Assembly: GCA_963422375.2 (NCBI GenBank)
Contig: OY729428.2
Location: 2,112,001 to 2,176,000 of the forward strand
Source of the DNA: Bryobacterales bacterium
Lineage (GTDB): Bacteria; Acidobacteriota; Terriglobia; Bryobacterales; UBA6623
Length of the DNA: 64,000 nt
Direction of reading: 5' to 3'
The first letter of the stretch is position 1; each line of letters starts with the position of its first letter. The translations under genes and the position numbers were made by a program. This document shows, in pieces, positions 2 through 63,303 of the stretch. The notes beneath the pieces were generated by a model. That model was not told the DNA's origin. It did no database searches and saw only the letters and a list, made by a program, of their open reading frames with translations.

Positions 2-985
2 GGGCGGGGACGGTTCTCTCCCGAGTTGCTCGAGGCGATTCGCTCTTGCCTCCGCCTGCGGCCAGAGGACCGCTTGGGGAGTGCCGCCCATCTCCTGAAG
101 CTTCTAGATCCCGACCAACATGGCGACACTCTACCCGTACAAGAACACGAGGATTCAGGGCAGCATCGCTCGAGAGCAAGAGCCAACGCACGAGGCAGCC
201 GTTGGCGCACCAGCAAGAGAATGCTCTTGGCCGGGATCGCATTCGGCACTGCAATGGCCATTGGGGCTCTTTGGTATGGGACGCGCACGGCAGGCAGTGA
301 GTATCCGGTTCCTTGGACTGGTGACCCATACGTTGTGGGTGACCGGTTCCGCGATTGCAACGAATGCCCGGAGATGATGGTCGTGCCCGCTGGTCGTTTC
401 GTGATGGGGTCGCCCGAGTCGGAACGAGGAAGGGAGGACGATGAAGGTCCGCAGCGTGCCATCGTAATTCGTCACGCGTTTGCCGTCGGCGTATACGAAC
501 TTACTTTGGCCGAGTGGGAGGCCTGTAGTTGGGCGGGAGACTGCGGGCAACTCTATCCCTCTCACGAGGGATGGGGGCGGGATTCACGACCAGTGATTCA
601 CGTCAGATACAGCGATGACCATTCCTATATCAAATGGATCAGCGGGCGAACAGGGAAAACCTACCGGCTGCTCATCGAGGCCGAATGGAAATACGTATCA
701 CGGGCTGGAACGACGACTCAATTTTCGTTTGGAGACGAGATTTCAACACAAGATTCTAACTACATGAGTCTTCTCGGCGGGACCGTAGAAGTAAGGGAAT
801 ATCCACGGAATGAGTTTGGATTACATGACCTACAAGGAAATGTATGGGAGTGGGTGCAGAGTTGTGAAACCCTAAGTAATTGCTGGTTTGTGTATCGGAG
901 AGGCGGTGGATGGAATGACGCCGAGCAGAGCTTGCGATCAACTAACCGTGCTAGATTTTTACCCACAAGACTCAGCCAAGGTTAG
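2..985 (+). pseudogene. Ser/Thr kinase C-terminus + TM helix + formylglycine-generating enzyme (SUMF1/FGE-sulfatase) domain protein; 5' partial, interrupted by IS1595 element
   Basis: Frame is open from base 2. It shows a kinase subdomain XI-like LEAIRSCLRLRPEDR, a hydrophobic helix, and FGE motifs FRDCNECPEMMVVPAGRFVMGS, RLLIEAEWKY, NEFGLHDLQGNVWEW and RSTNR, then runs into the IS end at about 955. Confidence 0.8.
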
Positions 986-2006
986 GAGGCGGTGAGGCAT
1001 GGGCGGGGTGCGCACGGAGGCGTGGAGCAGGCGGGGGACCAGCGCCTCCAGGTGGTAGCGGCGGTTGAAGCGGTAGCGGAACGCGGCGAGGTACCGCGGC
1101 AGGTGCTTGCCGTCGAGCGCATGGCAGGTTCCCGCCAGGGACTGCTTGACGTGCGCCAGCATCGTGTTGACCCGGACGAAGCGGGAATCCCCGCAGCTCC
1201 GCTGCCCGCCTGCGGTGACGGTCGGCACGTGCTCGCAGCCGGCGCCGGCCACGCCCCGCAAGCAGGCCAAGCCGTCGGAATGCACCTCCGTGCCGGGCTG
1301 CAGGTGCCGCCCGGCCCACGCTGCCAGCGTCTTCTTGCGGAAGCCCGCCACGCTGGCCACGCTGCTCATGCGCATCCTTGCCGGCTGGCCGGCGGCGCTG
1401 ACCTGCACGGCGGCGACGAACGGCGTCCTGCCCGCCGCGCCGCGCCCGCGCTGGCCGCCGCTCCGCTCCCCGCCCCGGTAGGCGTCGTCCGCCTGCACGA
1501 TGCCGCCCGGCGGCAGGCGCTCGTCGCGCTCCTTCATCACTTGCAAGAGCTTGTGCTTCATCTTCCAAGCCGTGTTCCGGCTCACGCCCGGCTGCCGCGC
1601 CAGTTCCAGCGACGAAACGCCGTGCTTGCCCTGCGTCAGCAGGTGGAGCGCCAGGAGCCGGACGGTCAGCGGCAGCTTGGTGGCGGCGAAGATCGTGCCG
1701 GCGACGAGGGAGGTCCGGCGGTGGCAGGCATGGCACTGCCAGAGCTTGCGGGAGCGGATGCGGCAGTGCCGGCGGGAGCCGCACCCCGGGCAGCGGAAGC
1801 CGTCCGGCCGCCGTCCGGCCAGCGGGCGTTGCAGACGGCCTGCTCGCATGGCCCCTCGCTGCCGTAGCGCTGCAGGAACTTGCCCGGGCTGAGTCCCTGC
1901 TGGAATTGCACGCGATTGCGTTTCATCTGCTATCCCCTTTCCTGTCAGAGATTTCCGACCTCCTCCAGTATAGCATATCCTCGGCTGACGTTCGTTGGTA
2001 ATCAGG
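954..2006 (-). mobile_element. IS1595-family (ISXo2-like) insertion sequence, decayed
   Basis: Imperfect inverted ends 954-977 (..ttacccacaagactcagcc) and 1983-2006 (ggctgacgttcgttggtaatcagg) enclose a transposase. Exact left boundary uncertain. Confidence 0.8.
959..1926 (-). pseudogene. IS1595-family transposase, frameshifted
   Basis: N-terminus MKRNRVQFQQGLS...RWPDG (frame 1926) joins the Zn-ribbon/DDE frame 959-1849 (CPGCG, CHAC, DDAY, SDG, HLPRYL..FRYRFNRR) if the 11-bp duplication at 1799-1820 is removed. Confidence 0.9.
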
Positions 2007-6394: not shown

Positions 6395-7920
6395 ATGCGG
6401 TCATTCCAAGCCTGCCTGTTCGCGCTGTTCGCCGCGTCCTGCGGTGCTAGGCATCCGAACGCGCTTCCGGAATGGCCGAGCGTACTGTTCATCGCTGTGG
6501 ATGACCTGAACGTGGACCTCGGAGCGTACGGCGAGCTGGATGACCTGAACGTGGACCTCGGAGCGTACGGCGAGCACCCCACCGCCAAGACGCCAAACAT
6601 CGACCGCCTGGCATCGCAAGGCGTTCGATTCGACCGTGCGTACGCCCAAGACCCGCTGTGCAACCCGTCACGCACCTCGCTGCTGAGCGGCAGGAGGCCC
6701 GCCTCGACCCAGGTCTACGGCAACTTCGTCGAACCGCGTAGTCAGATCGGTTCGGTGGTCATGCTGCCCGAGCATTTCCGCACGCACGGATATTTCACCG
6801 CACGGGTCGGCAAGATCGCCCACGGGCGCTACGAGGACTCCGTCGAGTGGGACATATCCGAAATGCCGCGAGGCGCGAGTATTACCTGCCGGGGGCGGAC
6901 AGCTCAGAGGTACGGGACAACTCCTGGATCGATGGATCCGAAAACGGTCTGTCGAGGGCCGAGATTCTGAACCACTTAAACCGCCCGACCGGCATGCCTC
7001 TGACATGGCGCGCCACGGACGAGACCGAGGCTGAGACGCCGGACGGCCAGACCGCTCGCAGGGTCATCGAGATCATGCGCGCCAACCGCGACAGGCCCTT
7101 CTTCATCGGCGCGGGATTCCACAAGCCCCATCAGCCCTGGGTCGCCCCGGCATCGTTCTGCGAGCAGCACCAGGTGGCGAACGTCGAACTCGCGGGAGGC
7201 CCTGCTGACGACCGCCGCGACATACCGCCTCCCGCGCTGAGCGGCTACCCCGAGGATGGGGACCACACCGCGAAGCAAAAGCGCCAGGCTATCGCCGCCT
7301 ACCACGCGACAGTGACGCTGGTCGATGTCCAAGTCGGCTTGCTCATGGAGGCCCTCGCCGAGCTCGGACTGGACGGAACGACAATCGTCGTGTTCTTCAG
7401 CGATCACGGGTTCCATCTCGACGAGCACGGCGGTCTCTGGCGCAAGCACACGCAGTTCGAGGAATCGACCCGGGTGCCTCTCATTGTCCGCGCGCCCGGA
7501 GGCCTCTCGGGAGTTGCTACTGACGCCCTCGTCGAACTCGTGGATCTCTATCCGACGCTCGCGGACCTGTGCGGCCTACCGATTCCGGAGGGCTTGGAAG
7601 GGACGAGCTTCAGGCCCGTGCTGGAAGACCCCGAGATTCCATGGAAGCCGGCTGTCTTCTCGGAACTCCAGCGGAGCCGCTGGCATGGACGGTCAATTCG
7701 AACGGCAAGCCACCGGTATACGGAATGGTCTCCCCTTGAAGGAGACGACGAGGCTCTGCTCGAGATGTACGATCTCGAAAACGACCCCAGAGAATTCACG
7801 AATATCGCGATGATGGCCGAGCACGCCGAACTTCGGCTGGAGCTAGCAGGAGCGCTGAAGAACGGATGGCGCGGGGCTCTTCCCGCGCCCCTTGCGAAAA
7901 GCAGCAGGGTCATCGAATAG
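6395..7920 (+). pseudogene. Sulfatase (iduronate-2-sulfatase-like), frameshifted at about 6860 and carrying a 39-bp duplication
   Basis: Signal peptide, FIAVDDL, CNPSR, GKIAH in frame 6233; GFHKPH, SDHG, WRKH, VELVDLYPT and YDLENDP in frame 6847. Confidence 0.88.
6498..6575 (+). repeat. Perfect 39-bp tandem duplication
   Basis: tggatgacctgaacgtggacctcggagcgtacggcgagc at 6498-6536 and 6537-6575. Confidence 0.97.
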
Positions 7921-9589
7921 CGATTCTAATTTTGGCCATCAAGGGGGTGCGTGAGAGTTGATTAGGAGGATGAGATGAACAAGTCGACCGCGAGGTCGCG
8001 CTACTGAGGCCGCCCCGCGGGAGCGTCGGACGGCGGGCAGGGTCGTGGCGCGGCCCGCGTCGCGGGTCCGCCGAGTGCCGAGCCCGCGGCCGGACGCACT
8101 CCGGCGGTAGCCGGCTGCGACGGTCGGACGCTGGCCGGACGCTGCCGGCACGCAACTGCGCGGAGTCCAGGCCCCGGCTGCCTGGCAGCCCGGCGGCGCG
8201 CGTCCGTCGCGCACCGCCGCCAGCAGCGTCGGCCGGTCCGGGAAGCGGAACCAGCGCAGCGCGACCTGCAGCTCCCGGAACAGGGCGCGGCGCGTGACCG
8301 GCTGGCGCCGGCACTGCCGCCGCAGCGCGCAGACGCACTGCACCACGGCGTGGAGCGCGAAGGCGAACAGGTTCGGCACGGCCGGCACGTTGGCCAGCCC
8401 GTCCTTGCCGTGCCCGAAGTTGCGCTTGCAGTTGCGGCCGTGCCGCGCCAGGCAGTTGCAGCCCTCGTTCTCGATCTTCCAGCGCGCCCGGCCGGCCCGC
8501 GCGATCCGCTCCGCGTTGTCCGCGGTGACCGCGAGACCGGCGAAGAAGCTGCTGGCGCAGGTGCGCTTGCCGTCGCGCTCCACGGCGTACTCGAGCCAAG
8601 TGCCCCGCAGGGCGTCGCGGCCCTGGCGCAGGGGCACCGCGGCCGTCCAGCGGAAACGGTGCCGCTCGGAGCGCTTGCCCTTCCCGCGCCGCGGCAGCCA
8701 GCCGGTCGAGCGCACCGCGCCGCTCGCCCGCCGGCTCTCCGGCACCTCGTACCAGTGCTTGCGGGATCCGGGCTTGCATGCCCGGATGCAGTCCATGCCG
8801 GCCGCCGCGGCGGCAGGCCTGCAGCCAGGCGCCGCGAGCGGCGATCCGGCGCTTGGCGGCGTTGCGCTCGCAGTCCCGCTTGCGCTCGTCCTCGCTCATG
8901 TCGGCGCGGGTCGCGGCCGCGTCCTGCTGCGGGCACGCGAACTCGGGCATCAGCGGCAGGACGGTGGCGTGGCCGTCGGCCACCGCGGTGGCCGACGGCC
9001 ATGGTCTGGAAGTGATGCGGCCGGCGCTCGCTGCCGGCGCGCCGCACCGAGCACTGCGGGCAATGCACCCTGTCGGAGCGGTGGAACCGGACGCCGTCCG
9101 GAGCCGCCGGCAGGCGCTCGTCGAGGCGCTGGAAGGGCTCGAGCGCGCCCTGCGCGGCCACGGTTGCGAGGCACGGCCGGAACGGCGGGTCGAACGCGGC
9201 CGGGTCGAGGTCGTCGAGCAAGTTGCGGATCCGGTGGTCGCAGGGGATGCGGCCCGCGCCGCACAGGGTCCGGCAGTTGCAGCGGGAGCCGTCCCGCTCC
9301 ATGCGCCGCTGGAACGCGAGCAACGACTCGCACCGGGTGAAGAAGCAGGCCGGGGCGCACCAGGGCGCAACCGGCGGCGTCGCTGACCGCGTAGCGCGTG
9401 TTGCTGCGACCCTCGCGCCGGTCGGGCCGGCCGGCGGCCGTCCCGCGGAAGGCGCTCGGCAGCGCGTCCAGGACATGGGGCATGCACCCTAGCTCACACA
9501 TTCCGCTAGCAAAAGTCAAGTGCCAGACTGCCTTCGACACCTTTCTCAGACACTCTGGAAATCCCAAAATGCCCAAATTGAGAATCGCT
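7919..9589 (-). mobile_element. Decayed insertion sequence (ISNCY-like DDE transposase)
   Basis: Inverted ends agcgattctaattttggccat (7919-7939) and atgcccaaattgagaatcgct (9569-9589) match at 18/21 positions; no obvious target duplication. Confidence 0.8.
7939..9483 (-). pseudogene. DDE transposase, multiple frameshifts
   Basis: Fragments in three frames: PDRREGRSNTRY, FQRRME..RIPCDHRIRNLLD, DGVRFHRSDRVHCPQC, VLPLMPEF, KRDCERNAAKR, GRARWKIENEG, NFGHGKDGL. 3' end approximate. Confidence 0.82.
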
Positions 9590-10044
9590 GATCCGCAGCT
9601 GCTTCCGCTCCAGCTCCTAGGTGAAGTCCGGGGCGCAGGCGGGCGCGTCCGGCACCGTAGGAATACTGGGTTCCGGTCTCAGCTGCATAGAGTATCGCGA
9701 GGCCTCGTCCCTGGACCAACGCAGCCCCGTCCGGTCCGAATTGAAATTCGATCGGCTTGAAGCCAGCACGCCGACCTCGCCGCGGAAAGGATTGAGCTGC
9801 TAGGTCGTCGCGGACCGGCACCATGAGGCCGTGCCCGGGAGCGTCGCGGGATTAGCGGTCGGGGCTCGGCGCATCTGACGGGGCAGGCCCCCGGGGCGCA
9901 CTTCTCGGGATGGTCGCAAGAAGGGAATTGCCTGAAGCCCGCGGACCCGAGCGTGTCGGATCCCATAGGGGACACGACACGGGCCGGATCCCAACCGACG
10001 GGCGGTGAGGGCCGGGTATGAAAGCCGCACAATGCGCAAGGGGT

Positions 10045-10398
10045 TGGTGGAGGCGGCGGGAATCGAACCCGCGTCCGAAAGAGACCGCCGGAGAGAGCCT
10101 ACATGCTTAGTCCGTTCGAGAGTCTCGACCGCGGCTTGGGAACGAACAAGCCGTCCGCGATCCAGCCCGATTAATCTCGGCCCCGAGACTCCGAGCAGAA
10201 GTCTCGACGCCCATCTCGCGAGGTGACACCTCCGGCCGATATGCGAGCCCGTCGGCTGAGGCGGCTGCCTAGAGACTAGGCAGCGTGTGCAAACTGCAAA
10301 TCGTTGGCAGTTCTGGTTGTCCGATCGTTTTACGGGTGCTCGGAACCCGGCATGCCTCTCAGCAGCGATTGCAATTCCGTCGAAGCCTGTGCGCCCCC
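10045..10398 (-). ncRNA. ssrA: tmRNA; tag peptide ANDLQFAHAA* (10308-10276)
   Basis: 5' GGGGGCGCACAGGCTTCGAC and 3' GGACGCGGGTTCGATTCCCGCCGCCTCCACCA form a tRNA-like domain with G3:U pair; internal tag ORF ends in AA*. Confidence 0.96.
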
Positions 10399-19569: not shown

Positions 19570-20540
19570 GCCATGTTGGTACGGCCAATCGCTCGTACGG
19601 CAGCAATCCGGCAATCGCGCAGCAAGCCTCGCAAGGCTCGCACTTACGTGGACGCTCACTCGACTCTGGACGAAGAAGTTCCAATTCTTCGACCTCGAGC
19701 GAGGCCTCGATTCGGCGGGCCTCTCGGATCGGTTCCTCGGAGAGGGCTCGCCGTCCTAGGATCCGACCTCGCCCCGAGATCCTCCAAGCGTCGGCAAAGC
19801 TAGCAAATTGATTGAGACGCACGGCCCACTTCATCGCACTGGGCGGTGCTCCCGCGGCGTTGCTGGATCGGCCGTGCTGGAGCCTAGACGGATGCTCGCT
19901 CGCTGCAACTTTCCGGGGATCGGCCAATCCGAGATCTGCTCAGGGTCAGACGGTGCTCTTTCCTGAGATGCGCCTTGCCTGGCTCGTTCACGGCTTGCAG
20001 TCGCTCCGAGTGCTTGCTCCTTCGGGGCAATTCTGTTCGGATGCGGCTTGAACTGGCGCGTCCCCGCTGAAAGACGCCGTAGGCGACCTGTCGCAAGAGC
20101 GATTCCGCGCGATGGTAACTCGCGAAAACGCCCCATTCTAGAGCGCCCCAGTCTGCACACCGTGCGCTAGCACCCAGACGCACTCGCAGCCCCGACATCG
20201 TCCGGCCCCTAAACTCCTGACGTCCATATCCCAAGAACCGGTTGTTCAAGGCACCGCAAGTACACGTCTGCGATTCCGGCATTCTCGGACGCATAACCAG
20301 TGTCACCACGCATTGGGAAGTCGCTGGGCATCCTAATGTCCGGACCTCTTGGGATGGCATTCTGACCGAGAGTGGGGTCCGGGCGATCCGTGCCGAGGAG
20401 CGCGACTGCCACTTCTGCCAGCTCACCACGGGGCGGAGATCGACGTCATCATCCAGAAGGGGGGCCATCGAGTTTCGAAGTCAAGCGCGGACGCACCCGG
20501 TCCTCGCCCCATCCATGACAGCCGGGCTCCATGACAGCCG
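19570..20540 (+). pseudogene. Heavily decayed AAA-family ATPase (AAA_14 + DUF4143)
   Basis: Ordered relics across frames: FFDLE, FIALGGAPAALL..SLDG, RLFKAPQVHVCDSGIL, GHPNVRTSWDG, HGAEIDVII, FEVK. Many stops and frameshifts; boundaries approximate. Confidence 0.65.
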
Positions 20541-33327: not shown

Positions 33328-33760
33328 GGGAATTATATATCTGAGTGCCGACAACGCCATATCCGACTAGAACTGCTGTGAGCAGGGAGGTGGGTGTCGA
33401 GCTGGGGTCATGCGAGTGCGGCCGCGGCGGGCACAGAGGGGAGGGGTGTGGGATCGTATCTGAATCGAGCCTGCCAGCGGATTGGACGAGGAAGGGACTA
33501 GAGAGGCCGCCTCGCATGCCCCGGTTGCCCCGGGGGAACCCGGTTGGCGGTGGCAGGGCACCCCTTGCAAGCCGCTTGCAGGCCCTGCGAGGGCCGAAGA
33601 CAGCGGATCCCCGGCGCTCGACGGCCTGCATGGACGGTCCGGACCGGGGTCGCGCCGGGGCATGCCGCATCCGGTGCGCCCCTCGTACCGAGCGTGCAGC
33701 GCACCGAGCGTGAAGAGCGCGCCCGCAGCGGGCTGCCGCGCTCAGCGCGGCGGGCGCCGC

Positions 33761-34721
33761 TCGGGCCGCGACCGCGGCCTTGCCGGTCAGCGTCCGGCCG
33801 ACCAGGCCCCGCGCCATGCGCCGCATCCGTTCCGCCGTTGTTCCGCCCTGTCGCAGTCGCGGTCGTTGCGCCGTCCCGCGAACTCCGTGAGGTAGCGGCC
33901 GAGATGACGGACGCTCATCCGGTGATAGGTGCCGTACAGGCCGCGCTTGAACAGGGACCCAAACGATTCGATGCCGTTCGTATGCGCTGCCCCGCGCACG
34001 TACTCGCCGCCGGAGCGCCGGAGTGCCTGACGGCTTCGTGCGCGAACTCCGCCATGCCGGCGCAGGCCGCCGCCTCGTCGGAGCGGACCTGCGCCCCCGG
34101 CGCGACGCGGGCGCGCGCGAAGCCCTGCAGGTCGCCCTTGGCGGTGCCCGGCAGCGGCCGCGCGGCCGCTGCGTTCGTGGCGCGGTCCCGCGCCCCCGCC
34201 ACGGGCGTCTTGCCAACGGGCCCGCGCCCGGCGCGGGCCTTCTTCCTCTCGTGCTTGTTGCGCTCCTTGCCGCCGACGTAGGTCTCGTCCACCTCCACCG
34301 GGCCGGCGAACAGGCCCCGATCCCGCTCCCGGCACGCGCGGATGCGGTGCGCCAGGTGCCAGGCCGACTTTTGGCTGATGCCTAGGTCGCGGTGCAGCTT
34401 CATGCTCGAGACGCCCTTGATGCCGGTGGTCAGCAGGAACAGGGCCACGGCCCGGGTGCGGTAGCCGAGCTTGGTGTCGGCCGTCACGCTGCCGGTGCGC
34501 ACGGAAAAGCGCTTGCCGCAGCCGCGGCAACGGTACGGCATCGAAGGGTGGGCCGCGTCGGACTGCACGCTGGAGCCGCGGCAGCGGGGGCACGCGGGAC
34601 CGTCCGGCCAGCGCATGGAGGCGAACCACTTTTCCGCGGATTCGTCATCGGGAAACATGGCGATCACTTCGATCAATGTGATGCCTTTACGGAACCACTT
34701 TCCGGGACCTGATTTCTTCAT
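33761..34721 (-). pseudogene. IS1595-family transposase, two frameshifts
   Basis: RWPDGPACPRC, CRGC, GVSSMKLHRDLG, VEVDETY, HTNGIES, KRGLYGTYH. Frames rejoin on removing an 8-bp and an 11-bp duplication; 3' end inferred. Confidence 0.9.
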
Positions 34722-34744
34722 TTACGGTATCCCCTACTGGAACT

Positions 34745-34774
34745 ATTCTACCAAGAAACACCACAGAATGTCAA
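34745..34774 (-). promoter_or_regulatory. Sigma70-type transposase promoter
   Basis: TTGACA-N18-TAGAAT with extended -10 TG. Confidence 0.6.
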
Positions 34775-36055
34775 CGGAAAGTCGGAAGAAATATGAAATC
34801 TTATAATGGCTTAATAATTTGCCGGCTTGATTCCCTCGGAACTCAGATATATAATTCCCTATTTTAGCAGAGAAATAGTTACTCATTGGTCCGAAATCGA
34901 GTTTCCATATATCGGAAAGAAATGCCCAAGTAATTGCTATCAATTGTGCTCTCCTAGCCGAGTATTAGGCGACGAACACTCTCCAGAATCTGTGCCATTC
35001 AGGCCGGTGCCGACGTACGAGGGAGAGACCGTTCATCGCTCGACAGGGGGACTCGGCGATGGGCAAATCCACAAACTGAAGTCGACCCGCGAGAGGAGAG
35101 GGCCAGTGGATGAGAGCCGCTTGTAGTCGTGAACTCTCGCGTCGATCCGATCTCGGCTCGCAGCTGCCTCTGTCAGTGTAGCTGACGCTGGGGGTGTTAC
35201 GCGCTCGGCGTGAGGATCTGGGGCGGGCTGGGCCTGGGCGCGAATGGAGAGCAGGTCCGCCATCCTTGAGCGAAGAATGAACGGTCGGCCCTGCGGCCTG
35301 AACGTGTCAGAGTGCCCGGCCCGAGAGCGCGGCTGGGCCGGTCTCGGAATCGGCGGCTGCGTGATTTGGTTCGGCCGGGGACGGGCGGACGTACCCAAGC
35401 TCGACTCGGGCAACCGGCCCGGCGCAGCCATCCCATTCGGTCGTGCCACCCAGCTGGGAGAGCCTTGCTGCCGAGCCGCATCGGATGCTCCGGTTCTGCG
35501 CTCTGCGTTTACCGCCCGCTGGCGTGGGTGGCTCCAAGACGGAGGCCGGTTGGCGCACGGACACTCGTCTCGACTCGCCGGAGCTAAAGCCAAGATGGAA
35601 GCCGGTTGCCACCTCGGCCTTGGGGCAATGGCTACTCTGGGCCAAGGCTGACGGGCCCGGAGCTCGAGGCCACGCCCGTCCGAGACCTGGACCGGGGATG
35701 ACAGTAATGGTGGGGCACCGAGGCGAGAACCCGCCGAAGTCCAAGTTCCGCCGATGCAAATCGCCTCGCGTGCCGCCACCGTCTCTTGAGTCCGGCGAGG
35801 GCGCGCCGCTGTGCCTGCCTGCCCGAATGCCTGGGACAACAGCCCGCCCCCGCACCTGCTCTACCTTCGAGAGTGCGAATTGGCCTCGCTATCGCGCCAC
35901 GGCAGGGCGGGGATGGCAGGAAGTAGCATGTTGGTCGAGACCCGAGCCATGCCGGTTTCCGAGGGCGAAGGTCTGCGCGGAACGCGACAGGACCGGACTG
36001 AAGTGCGGCATCCCAGCGGCTCCTTCGGCTGCTAGACTTCAATGCAATCGGCACT

Positions 36056-55123: not shown

Positions 55124-55200
<77 letters not shown>

Positions 55201-62358: not shown

Positions 62359-63303
62359 ATGATCAAGCCGACCGCCAAGATCTGGCACAACGGCAACCTA
62401 ATCGCCTGGGACGACGCCAAGGTGCATGTGCTTACGCACGCGCTGCACTATGGCACCAGCGTGTTCGAGGGCATCCGCTGCTACGACACGCGGAAGGGCC
62501 CGCGCATCTTCCGCCTAGCCGAGCACGTGCGCAGGATGTTCGACTCCGCCAAGATCTACCGGATGATCGACTTGGGATTCTCGCGGCACGAGATCGAGCA
62601 GGCCTGCAAGGAGGTCACGGCGGTCAACGGCCTCTCCTCCTGCTATATCCGTCCGATCGCGTTCCGCGGTTTCGGCGATGTCGGCGTGCGTTCGCTCGGC
62701 AATCCGATTGAGATCTACATTGCCTGCTGGGAATGGGGCCGCTACCTCGGGGCGTCCGCGCTGGAGGAAGGCGTGGGGGTGTGTGTCTCCTCGTGGACCA
62801 GAATCGCCCCGAACACCCTCCCCGCGATCGCGAAGGTCGCCGCGAACTACATGAACTCCCAGCTGATCCTGATGGAGGCGAACCTGCACGGCTACACGGA
62901 GGGCATCGCCCTGGACGCCGCCGGGTATGTCTCGGAGGGCAGCGGGGAGAACATCTTCCTAGTGCGGGACGGGATCATTTACACGCCCCCCTTGGGCACG
63001 TCGGTGCTACCGGGGATCACCCGCGATTCCGTCCTCCGCCTCGCCACGGACCTGGGCTACCAGTTGAGGGAGCAGGCCATCCCGCGCGAGTGGCTCTACA
63101 TCGCCGACGAGCTGTTCTTCACCGGCACGGCGGCCGAGGTCACCCCGATCCGCTCGGTCGACAAGATCGAGGTCGGCAGCGGGCGGCGCGGGCCGATCAC
63201 CGAGCACATCCAGTCGGAGTTCCTTGCCATCACCAAGGGCGCGATTGACGACCGCTACGGCTGGCTGAGCCGCGTCGAGGCCCCCGCGTCCGCGGCAGCG
63301 TAG
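62359..63303 (+). CDS. ilvE: Branched-chain amino acid aminotransferase
   Basis: LHYGTSVFEG, YIRP, AKVAANY, EGSGENIF, LPGITR, GTAAEVTP. Confidence 0.96.
   Translation: MIKPTAKIWHNGNLIAWDDAKVHVLTHALHYGTSVFEGIRCYDTRKGPRIFRLAEHVRRMFDSAKIYRMIDLGFSRHEIEQACKEVTAVNGLSSCYIRPIAFRGFGDVGVRSLGNPIEIYIACWEWGRYLGASALEEGVGVCVSSWTRIAPNTLPAIAKVAANYMNSQLILMEANLHGYTEGIALDAAGYVSEGSGENIFLVRDGIIYTPPLGTSVLPGITRDSVLRLATDLGYQLREQAIPREWLYIADELFFTGTAAEVTPIRSVDKIEVGSGRRGPITEHIQSEFLAITKGAIDDRYGWLSRVEAPASAAA

Follow-up and report, generated by a model that had tools for sequence, protein, structure and literature searches.

GC-biased gene conversion as the probable source of A:T-to-G:C change among insertion sequence copies of a Bryobacterales genome

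Repeat-induced point mutation (RIP) of fungi acts on multicopy DNA, in which context-dependent, untemplated C>T changes lower the GC content, create stop codons and degrade transposons. Here, we analyzed an insertion sequence (IS) of the IS1595 family, element 1, together with two further IS elements, in a 64,000-nt stretch (the window, G000:C2:2112001-2176000; coordinates without a contig label are positions of the window) of the Bryobacterales assembly G000 (6.0 Mb, three contigs, 67% GC). The best named matches of its nadC are from Bryobacterales and related Acidobacteriota (52-58%), and one IS homologue bears the label Bryobacterales; an association with sponges is a guess. As in RIP, multicopy DNA is affected in a context-dependent manner and transposons are degraded. 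Unlike in RIP, the change in G000 is apparently templated, raises the GC content, includes transversions and creates few stops. It probably results from GC-biased ectopic gene conversion among the IS copies.

Bacterial GC-biased gene conversion (gBGC) was inferred by comparing alleles that recombine between genomes, in a study that leaves the mechanism open, without a need for MutSL, and does not mention insertion sequences, paralogs or base excision (Lassalle et al. 2015, PMC4450053). The IS pattern of G000 resembles it in that fixation is biased toward G/C along with recombination, can be mistaken for selection and can carry harmful alleles to fixation, but differs from what is described there in that exchange is ectopic, takes place within one genome, is read from an allele-frequency spectrum and carries a context signature. 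For paralogs of Mycobacterium tuberculosis, a 2026 preprint reports short conversion tracts (median 101 bp), an excess of T>C and a deficit of C>T, with seven events in insertion sequences (PMC13061034). A lean toward T>C among intrachromosomal copies is common to both organisms. In M. tuberculosis, however, it concerns mostly PE/PPE/ESX genes with few paralogs and is ascribed by the preprint to reduced NucS repair, whereas G000 has 36-95 copies per large IS family near linkage equilibrium, transversions are included, MutS and MutL are intact and NucS was not found in the 96% complete genome. In Wolbachia wBm, gene conversion maintains dead, highly similar IS copies (Cordaux 2009, as cited in PMC3196728); non-functional copies exchange sequence in both cases, but those of G000 stay ~4.4% apart as mosaics and their exchange is directional. 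Intragenomic conversion events are also documented in Escherichia coli ER2796 (PMC4444293). Among short-patch repair enzymes, Vsr converts T:G to C:G in defined contexts (CTWGG in E. coli, PMC2715241), the gonococcal Vsr V.NgoAXIV cuts CTGG/CCGG (PMC6116569), and overexpression of MutY in Helicobacter pylori raises short recipient patches in imports, for which the model is that MutY excises the A of G:A or C:A pairs (PMC2582958). The known roles of Vsr and MutY are repair of 5-methylcytosine deamination and editing of incoming DNA; the accessible parts of the cited papers do not link them to directional transposon erosion. A literature search, with most subscription papers outside its reach, returned no report of GC-biased conversion among IS copies or of a Vsr-like signature therein.

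Element 1 and the mosaic of its copies

The first-pass annotation of the window had recognized an IS1595 transposase and set the limits of the element at 959 and 1926. The identity is borne out by matches to PF12762 and PF12760 (Pfam; DDE_Tnp_IS1595 together with a zinc ribbon) and to NF033547 (172 bits, cut-off 75), while the full element extends from 959 to 2006 and comprises the following features:

959..2006, minus strand: element 1, IS1595-family copy (family A; BLAST, Pfam, NCBIfam), with 88 near-full copies in the genome, 81 of them analyzed
1997..2006, minus strand: left terminal inverted repeat, intact
959..963, minus strand: right inverted repeat, lacking its outer 5 nt and holding the transposase stop codon
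959..1926, minus strand: transposase pseudogene, ATG at 1926
1799..1820, minus strand: 11-bp tandem duplication that frameshifts the open reading frame (ORF), present in five copies otherwise no closer than average
1347..1364, minus strand: 9-bp tandem duplication (SSVASVAG), present in ten copies with mosaic backgrounds
1658..1660, minus strand: W86R, TGG>CGG in CTGG context, 59/81 copies
1589..1591, minus strand: L109P, CTG>CCG in CTGG context, 35/81 copies
1172..1174, minus strand: W245R in CTGG context, 79/81 copies
1124..1126, minus strand: Y261C, A>G, 80/81 copies

The flanks of element 1 carry no matching 8-bp target duplication. Its transposase keeps D, D, N and K of the catalytic motif at 1486, 1276, 1168 and 1147, and the conserved E275 is changed to A at 1084. 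The GC counts given in the annotation are correct (50/60 at 1381-1440, 38/60 at 62401-62460), and among 60-bp blocks of the window outside IS DNA, no more than 0.5% reach 50. The ORF has a GC content of 0.725 in the window copy and 0.71 in the family A consensus, with 0.63-0.70 in most homologous ORFs of the genus. All codons singled out earlier as departures from the IS1595 consensus are present, and most of 103 outside homologues hold W, F, L, W and Y at the positions of W86R, F87L (2/81 family A copies), L109P, W245R and Y261C. The tyrosine expected in the PMP-H-R motif is the family majority (79/81), but it is not a general IS1595 residue because at this position the aligned homologues of the genus have G, D, H, R or Q. 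The window copy has 31 polarisable differences, 23 of which are AT>GC derived alleles (14 transitions and nine transversions). A code change to CGG=Trp was set aside, as L>P, Y>C and K>Q changes occur just as often. A frame with an FGE-sulfatase domain (26-985) has its end cut by element 1, and a second family A copy in the same orientation lies ~1 kb upstream, just outside the window (G000:C2:2110898-2111930).

BLAST yielded 116 matches to family A, of which 88 were at least 900 bp long; 81 of these, which have both ends, were aligned and seven were dropped. The 81 copies show a mean pairwise difference of 45.6 bases (about 4.4%), mostly at ~100 two-allele sites in near-random combinations, and 4/101 common sites are triallelic. 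At distances above 20 bp, ~97% of site pairs show all four gametes, a result that rules out tree-like descent with biased mutation. Mean r2 drops from 0.21 for sites 1-5 bp apart to 0.055 (6-20 bp), 0.034 (21-40 bp) and 0.02 at greater distances (1/n expectation, 0.012). Long-range linkage is higher in families B and C (r2 of 0.10-0.12 at the longest distances), both of which contain subfamilies. C<>G variants are shuffled among family A copies as well (four gametes in 10/15 pairs), and multi-base duplications and deletions are common to copies no closer than average; two duplications mark one close clade. Of the 116 differences within the seven closest pairs, 98 are alleles found in at least three copies, mostly at isolated sites. 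Scattered single sites of this shared kind also distinguish copies that carry different perfect 8-bp target duplications. Such perfect duplications flank 43/81 copies, and the few clades of close copies occupy different loci, most with a perfect duplication of their own. Copy similarity is not related to physical distance (Spearman -0.02, p=0.45).

The indels of family A are a subject of their own. Insertions outnumber deletions, contrary to the usual bacterial deletion bias, and tandem duplications of 9-14 nt, common to unrelated haplotypes, sit at a few spots (family A consensus 187-193, 421-436, 512-520, 591-599, 631-640 and 807-822). Perfect tandem duplications of 8-40 nt number 66 per 100 kb in high-copy repeats and 10 in unique DNA, the former value being inflated by copy number. 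The duplications possibly stem from insertion-biased conversion or staggered repair nicks. Three near-identical copies at different loci (G000:C2:1012673, C2:414109 and C2:396915) share a frameshifting 10-bp insertion, two of them within perfect target duplications, which suggests mobilization in trans or replacement of whole elements.

Direction and context of change

Change was polarised at sites where one base yields the residue present in half or more of 93-103 outside homologues. Variants in at least 6% of copies were counted as common, and those in at least 95% were excluded (AT>GC and GC>AT, respectively: five and five in family A, three and none in B, four and one in C). The families of the other two window elements were included:

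33328..34859, minus strand: element 3, second IS1595 family (family B), 95 copies analyzed
7918..9590, minus strand: element 2, ISNCY-like copy (family C; the name is the source label of one homologue, P0322), 36 copies analyzed

In family A, 35 segregating AT>GC variants were common and 38 rare, whereas no GC>AT variant was common and 39 were rare (p=1e-8). The same asymmetry, already ascribed to the other two elements in the annotation, is found in family B (27 common and 40 rare against 5 and 52, p=6e-5) and family C (59 and 59 against 10 and 47, p=3e-5). Family A singletons are ordinary in comparison (61 on 319 A/T sites, 136 on 714 G/C sites); C>T (50) and G>A (56) lead, and 29 are A:T>C:G. 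Because singletons are ordinary while common variants are skewed toward AT>GC, the bias lies in what spreads and not in what arises. Equilibrium fits gave a bias B of ~10 for family B and ~3 for family C and were still rising at 40 for family A, values that are indicative only as the model is ill-suited.

The earlier description of the change as T>C and A>G captured a real drift from A:T to G:C, but the drift comprises all A:T>G:C and A:T>C:G classes. AT>GC transversions outnumber transitions in family A (48 vs 30), transitions lead in B (55 vs 15) and C (77 vs 45), and change is alike on both strands. Adenine deamination, one of three processes considered at first, does not agree with strand symmetry and with transversions as numerous as transitions (11 A>G, 19 T>C, 23 A>C and 25 T>G on the sense strand of family A), and the same holds for adenine-only, strand-specific mutagenesis of the DGR type; GC-biased conversion fits best among the three. 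A concentration of the change in element interiors is weak: common G/C alleles are present at 6/33 A/T sites less than 30 bp from an end, 10/43 at 30-79 bp, 18/88 at 80-199 bp and 56/202 deeper. The GC contrast between ends and interior is mostly ordinary non-coding versus coding anatomy, and the ends show no special sparing apart from the inverted repeats.

Common alleles spread with little regard to transposase function. The start codon is destroyed in 33/81 family A copies, the frame is broken in 47/79 readable copies that carry the same alleles, and all 32 full-length ORFs are changed at strongly conserved residues; stop codons are rare (six among 81 copies). The least damaged copy, G000:C2:1915771-1916800, retains a full 315-aa frame with five changes at strongly conserved positions and is a candidate transposase source, as judged from its frame. 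Family A also has 24 common C/G sites (e.g., consensus 308, 341, 647, 728 and 832), four conserved Phe codons segregate TTC/TTG, and G251A is present in 61/81 copies. Some C/G sites (positions 224 and 598) may be A/T sites swept by two G/C alleles. A search for IS1380 outgroups in 151 genomes of the phylum gave one match outside G000, and that family was left unpolarised.

The sequence context of the change is pronounced. Across the three large families, T>C is common at 27/38 CTGG sites (mean frequency 0.44) compared with 64/509 of all other sites (p=7e-15). CTGG was singled out as a class post hoc, though the effect is present in each of the large families taken separately (10/14, 5/7 and 12/17). 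T>C is also common at 8/14 N-T-(A/T)-GG, 8/20 GTGG and 14/285 residual-class sites, and A>C is commonest in S-A-A and S-A-T (31/161). A single-neighbour scan pooling all classes showed little, and the signal emerged once transitions and transversions were split. A weaker AT>GC bias holds where no GG context is involved (p=9e-7), as well as for A>C vs C>A (p=0.002). Identical 7-mers are affected in an all-or-none manner, from 0% to 85%: GCCTGGC is changed in 69/81, 20/95 or 0/36 copies and CGCTGGA in anything from 0/81 to 30/34, while 9/38 CTGG sites (24%) are unchanged in every copy. This all-or-none behavior fits a wait for one mutation followed by a sweep. In unique DNA of G000, the most depleted 5-mers are CCWGG and ACTAG/CTAGT (0.66 of expectation).

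Single-copy DNA, relatives and toy simulations served for comparison. One single-copy pseudogene lies in the window:

6410..7884, plus strand: single-copy broken sulfatase, control; AT>GC 3/180 and GC>AT 4/237 against 19 orthologues

The comparison with this pseudogene, suggested in the annotation (there 6395-7920), thus revealed no AT>GC excess. A second proposed control, 19570-20540, had no Pfam match and no paralog in G000. The control sulfatase, which is intact in most genus relatives, has a perfect 39-bp in-frame tandem duplication (6498-6575) and a frameshift near 6862. At ten IS-interrupted single-copy loci CTGG/CCGG stood at 0.47, compared with 0.475 in random unique DNA (range 0.36-0.61) and an estimated value of about 0.2 had CTGG been lost as in the IS. 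In the related genome G021 (21 full plus partial copies), shared AT>GC changes numbered ten and GC>AT one, with singletons at 13 vs 13. A young family in G008 (26/37 loci) is already mosaic (four gametes in 21/73 pairs; shared AT>GC 2 vs GC>AT 0). G016 and G046 had too few copies for comparison. The simulations used hand-set parameters and two runs per model. Biased conversion yielded 28-42 common AT>GC and 3-8 common GC>AT alleles with 46-73% of hot sites untouched; unbiased conversion, with or without hot-spot mutation, yielded 42-48 common GC>AT alleles; recurrent hot-spot mutation left 0% of hot sites untouched. Among them, only biased conversion combined few common GC>AT alleles with untouched hot sites.

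Rfam matches in the window were limited to the following:

10045-10398: tmRNA
55127-55200: tRNA

Alternative explanations and counter-evidence

The most serious alternative is a genome-wide AT>GC mutator that acts on all neutral DNA, with conversion unbiased and the IS copies only displaying its effect because they are free of selection; Vsr fixing T:G replication errors, or weak MutT with MutY fixing A:8-oxoG, would be examples. Synonymous GC is high and T at C_GG sites is low in G000, no MutT exceeded the NCBIfam cut-off (two weaker matches) and 29 A:T>C:G singletons were found, and overexpression of Vsr is reported as mutagenic in E. coli (PMC2715241). Mutation bias, however, alters the number of variants and not the frequency that each reaches. 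GC>AT variants are plentiful as singletons and never common in family A, in contrast to the unbiased simulations, and the interrupted single-copy genes keep CTGG/CCGG at the level of unique DNA, so that we regard a mutator as unlikely. The first-pass annotation had raised a possible reverse form of RIP. In such a form, a repeat-sensing defence would mutate each copy independently at preferred contexts (T>C in CTGG). The strong context preference, the isolated single-site changes, the heavier load of repeats relative to single-copy controls and the damage to conserved residues in every full-length ORF would agree with such a system. Yet it is largely refuted by the all-or-none pattern, as untouched CTGG sites coexist with identical 7-mers that reach 85% elsewhere and recurrent mutation left no site untouched in simulations. 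The scarcity of triallelic sites, short-range linkage, the shuffling of C<>G alleles and indels, and two apparent reversions to the majority A allele in a sister clade likewise indicate shared alleles swapped among copies instead of independent hits, and the few stop codons would make for a poor route of inactivation. We consider reverse RIP very improbable.

Host-level selection, either for GC or for dead transposases, could act on variants shuffled by unbiased conversion. GC selection and gBGC yield the same frequency spectrum, as stated in PMC4450053, and many of the sweeping alleles strike invariant residues. Against selection, GC>AT changes and stops fail to spread although they are just as damaging, copies whose frame is already broken carry the same alleles, and dependence on CTGG is unexpected, which leaves this explanation with hardly any weight. 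An assembly or polishing artefact that scrambles repeat copies was considered in view of the three-contig assembly, in which repeats covered at least ten times make up 8.7% of bases. Contigs of other runs (X1, 2015; X7, 2023) place 14/15 listed differences in family columns, 12 of them at common polymorphic sites, and the alleles recur, differently combined, in proteins of other assemblies. Other genomes show the pattern too, more than half of the family A copies keep perfect unique target duplications, and an artefact would not polarise by conservation or CTGG. Scrambling during assembly thus has a negligible chance of being the cause.

Several observations weigh against GC-biased conversion itself. 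Its support is indirect, as no conversion event was seen directly. Clustering of differences between sister pairs is not significant (25 vs 19 expected, p=0.07), and the longest shared runs average 194 bp vs ~158 bp when shuffled. The simulations match the observed linkage at 1-5 bp poorly, and the 24% of untouched CTGG sites fall below the 46-73% simulated under biased conversion; raised mutation input at CTGG may contribute. C>G alleles that reach 40-75% of copies are unexplained by the model. The CTGG preference is absent in G021 (2/21; N-T-W-GG 5/16) and in the nine-copy ISAzo13 family of G000 (0/8; GTGG 4/6), and asymmetry is missing in a second subfamily of G008 (shared 3 vs 6) and slight in G015 (only 5 vs 2). 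The single-copy controls are small and of ages not established, and three alignments to single-copy IS1595 relics, which also count in favor of a mutator, gave AT>GC 11/93 vs GC>AT 5/115. Four-fold GC in three orthologous genes of G000 is 0.893, second highest of 21 genomes (range 0.69-0.90), and T occupies 1/34 of their C_GG sites. The earlier proposal that a process acting on multicopy DNA drives AT>GC change and damages transposases is supported, but the bias is probably not exclusive to repeats because synonymous sites are also pushed toward GC. The same repair asymmetry may act slowly genome-wide and be accelerated by repeats.

Candidate repair enzymes and the fate of IS families

GC-biased conversion could proceed as follows. 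Each large IS family would behave as a recombining population within one chromosome, in which each point mutation has a single origin in one of the copies. Strand exchange at ectopic positions, presumably of RecA type, would bring copies together in heteroduplexes, and short-patch repair of the mismatches would favor the G:C partner. Pairing of an A:T with a G:C version would produce T:G and A:C mismatches, and pairing with a C:G version A:G and T:C mismatches. A Vsr-type nuclease might turn T:G into C:G in CTGG and N-T-(A/T)-GG, and MutY might resolve A:G and A:C by excising A. AT>GC alleles would then sweep through the family regardless of their effect on the transposase and GC>AT alleles would be erased, while occasional transposition or whole-element replacement would carry damaged versions to new sites. 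Inactivation of the transposase looks like a by-product of this process, and nothing shows a dedicated defence.

Attribution of the bias to Vsr and MutY is tentative, with the odds slightly against it, and is based on gene content and context. Acting one-way toward G:C and in short patches, both enzymes together would give the observed spectrum, context and rapid decay of linkage. G000 encodes recA, mutS, mutL, nth, an alkA-like gene, two genes of the UDG family, vsr and a mutY-like gene. The vsr frame, in the region of C2:2578614, is open (TIGR00632, 154 bits, cut-off 98), and the mutY-like gene scored 265 bits on a partial query (cut-off 286.5). Loss of mismatch repair was rejected as the cause, the mutS and mutL frames being open. 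Two points speak against a role of Vsr: the gene is present in 30/31 genomes of the genus, although the CTGG preference is missing in G021 and the ISAzo13 family, and no methyltransferase is among the listed ORFs adjoining vsr. Elsewhere in G000 there are 18 C5-methyltransferase matches. Three equally scoring C5-methyltransferase copies are located at G000:C1:1834233, C2:1339756 and C3:16926, two of them near a second, fragmented methyltransferase. The only two reverse-transcriptase frames matched in G000 are C1:1225019-1225693, between two family B copies, and C2:2846352-2846951.

By the tests available, the IS pattern of G000 behaves as GC-biased gene conversion does, though in an unusual form: it is ectopic, involves many copies and prevails over transposase function. 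The existence and the enzymes of bacterial gBGC have long been debated, with evidence so far from cross-genome correlations. A single long-read genome with 36-95 neutral recombining copies per family provides a frequency spectrum, linkage decay and a context that point to testable enzymes, and shows conversion spreading plainly damaging alleles against function. It is quite possible, though somewhat less likely than not, that large IS families self-destruct by a ratchet, in which high copy number generates ectopic heteroduplexes that are edited by one-way host repair (Vsr, MutY) and leave a lineage-specific context signature, here CTGG>CCGG. Such a ratchet would restrain transposons depending on their copy number, with a function analogous to that of RIP but no dedicated gene, and would name the molecular source of bacterial gBGC. 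The consensus transposases of such genomes do not equal the active ancestors, and the pattern suggests an unrecognised route by which IS expansions die.

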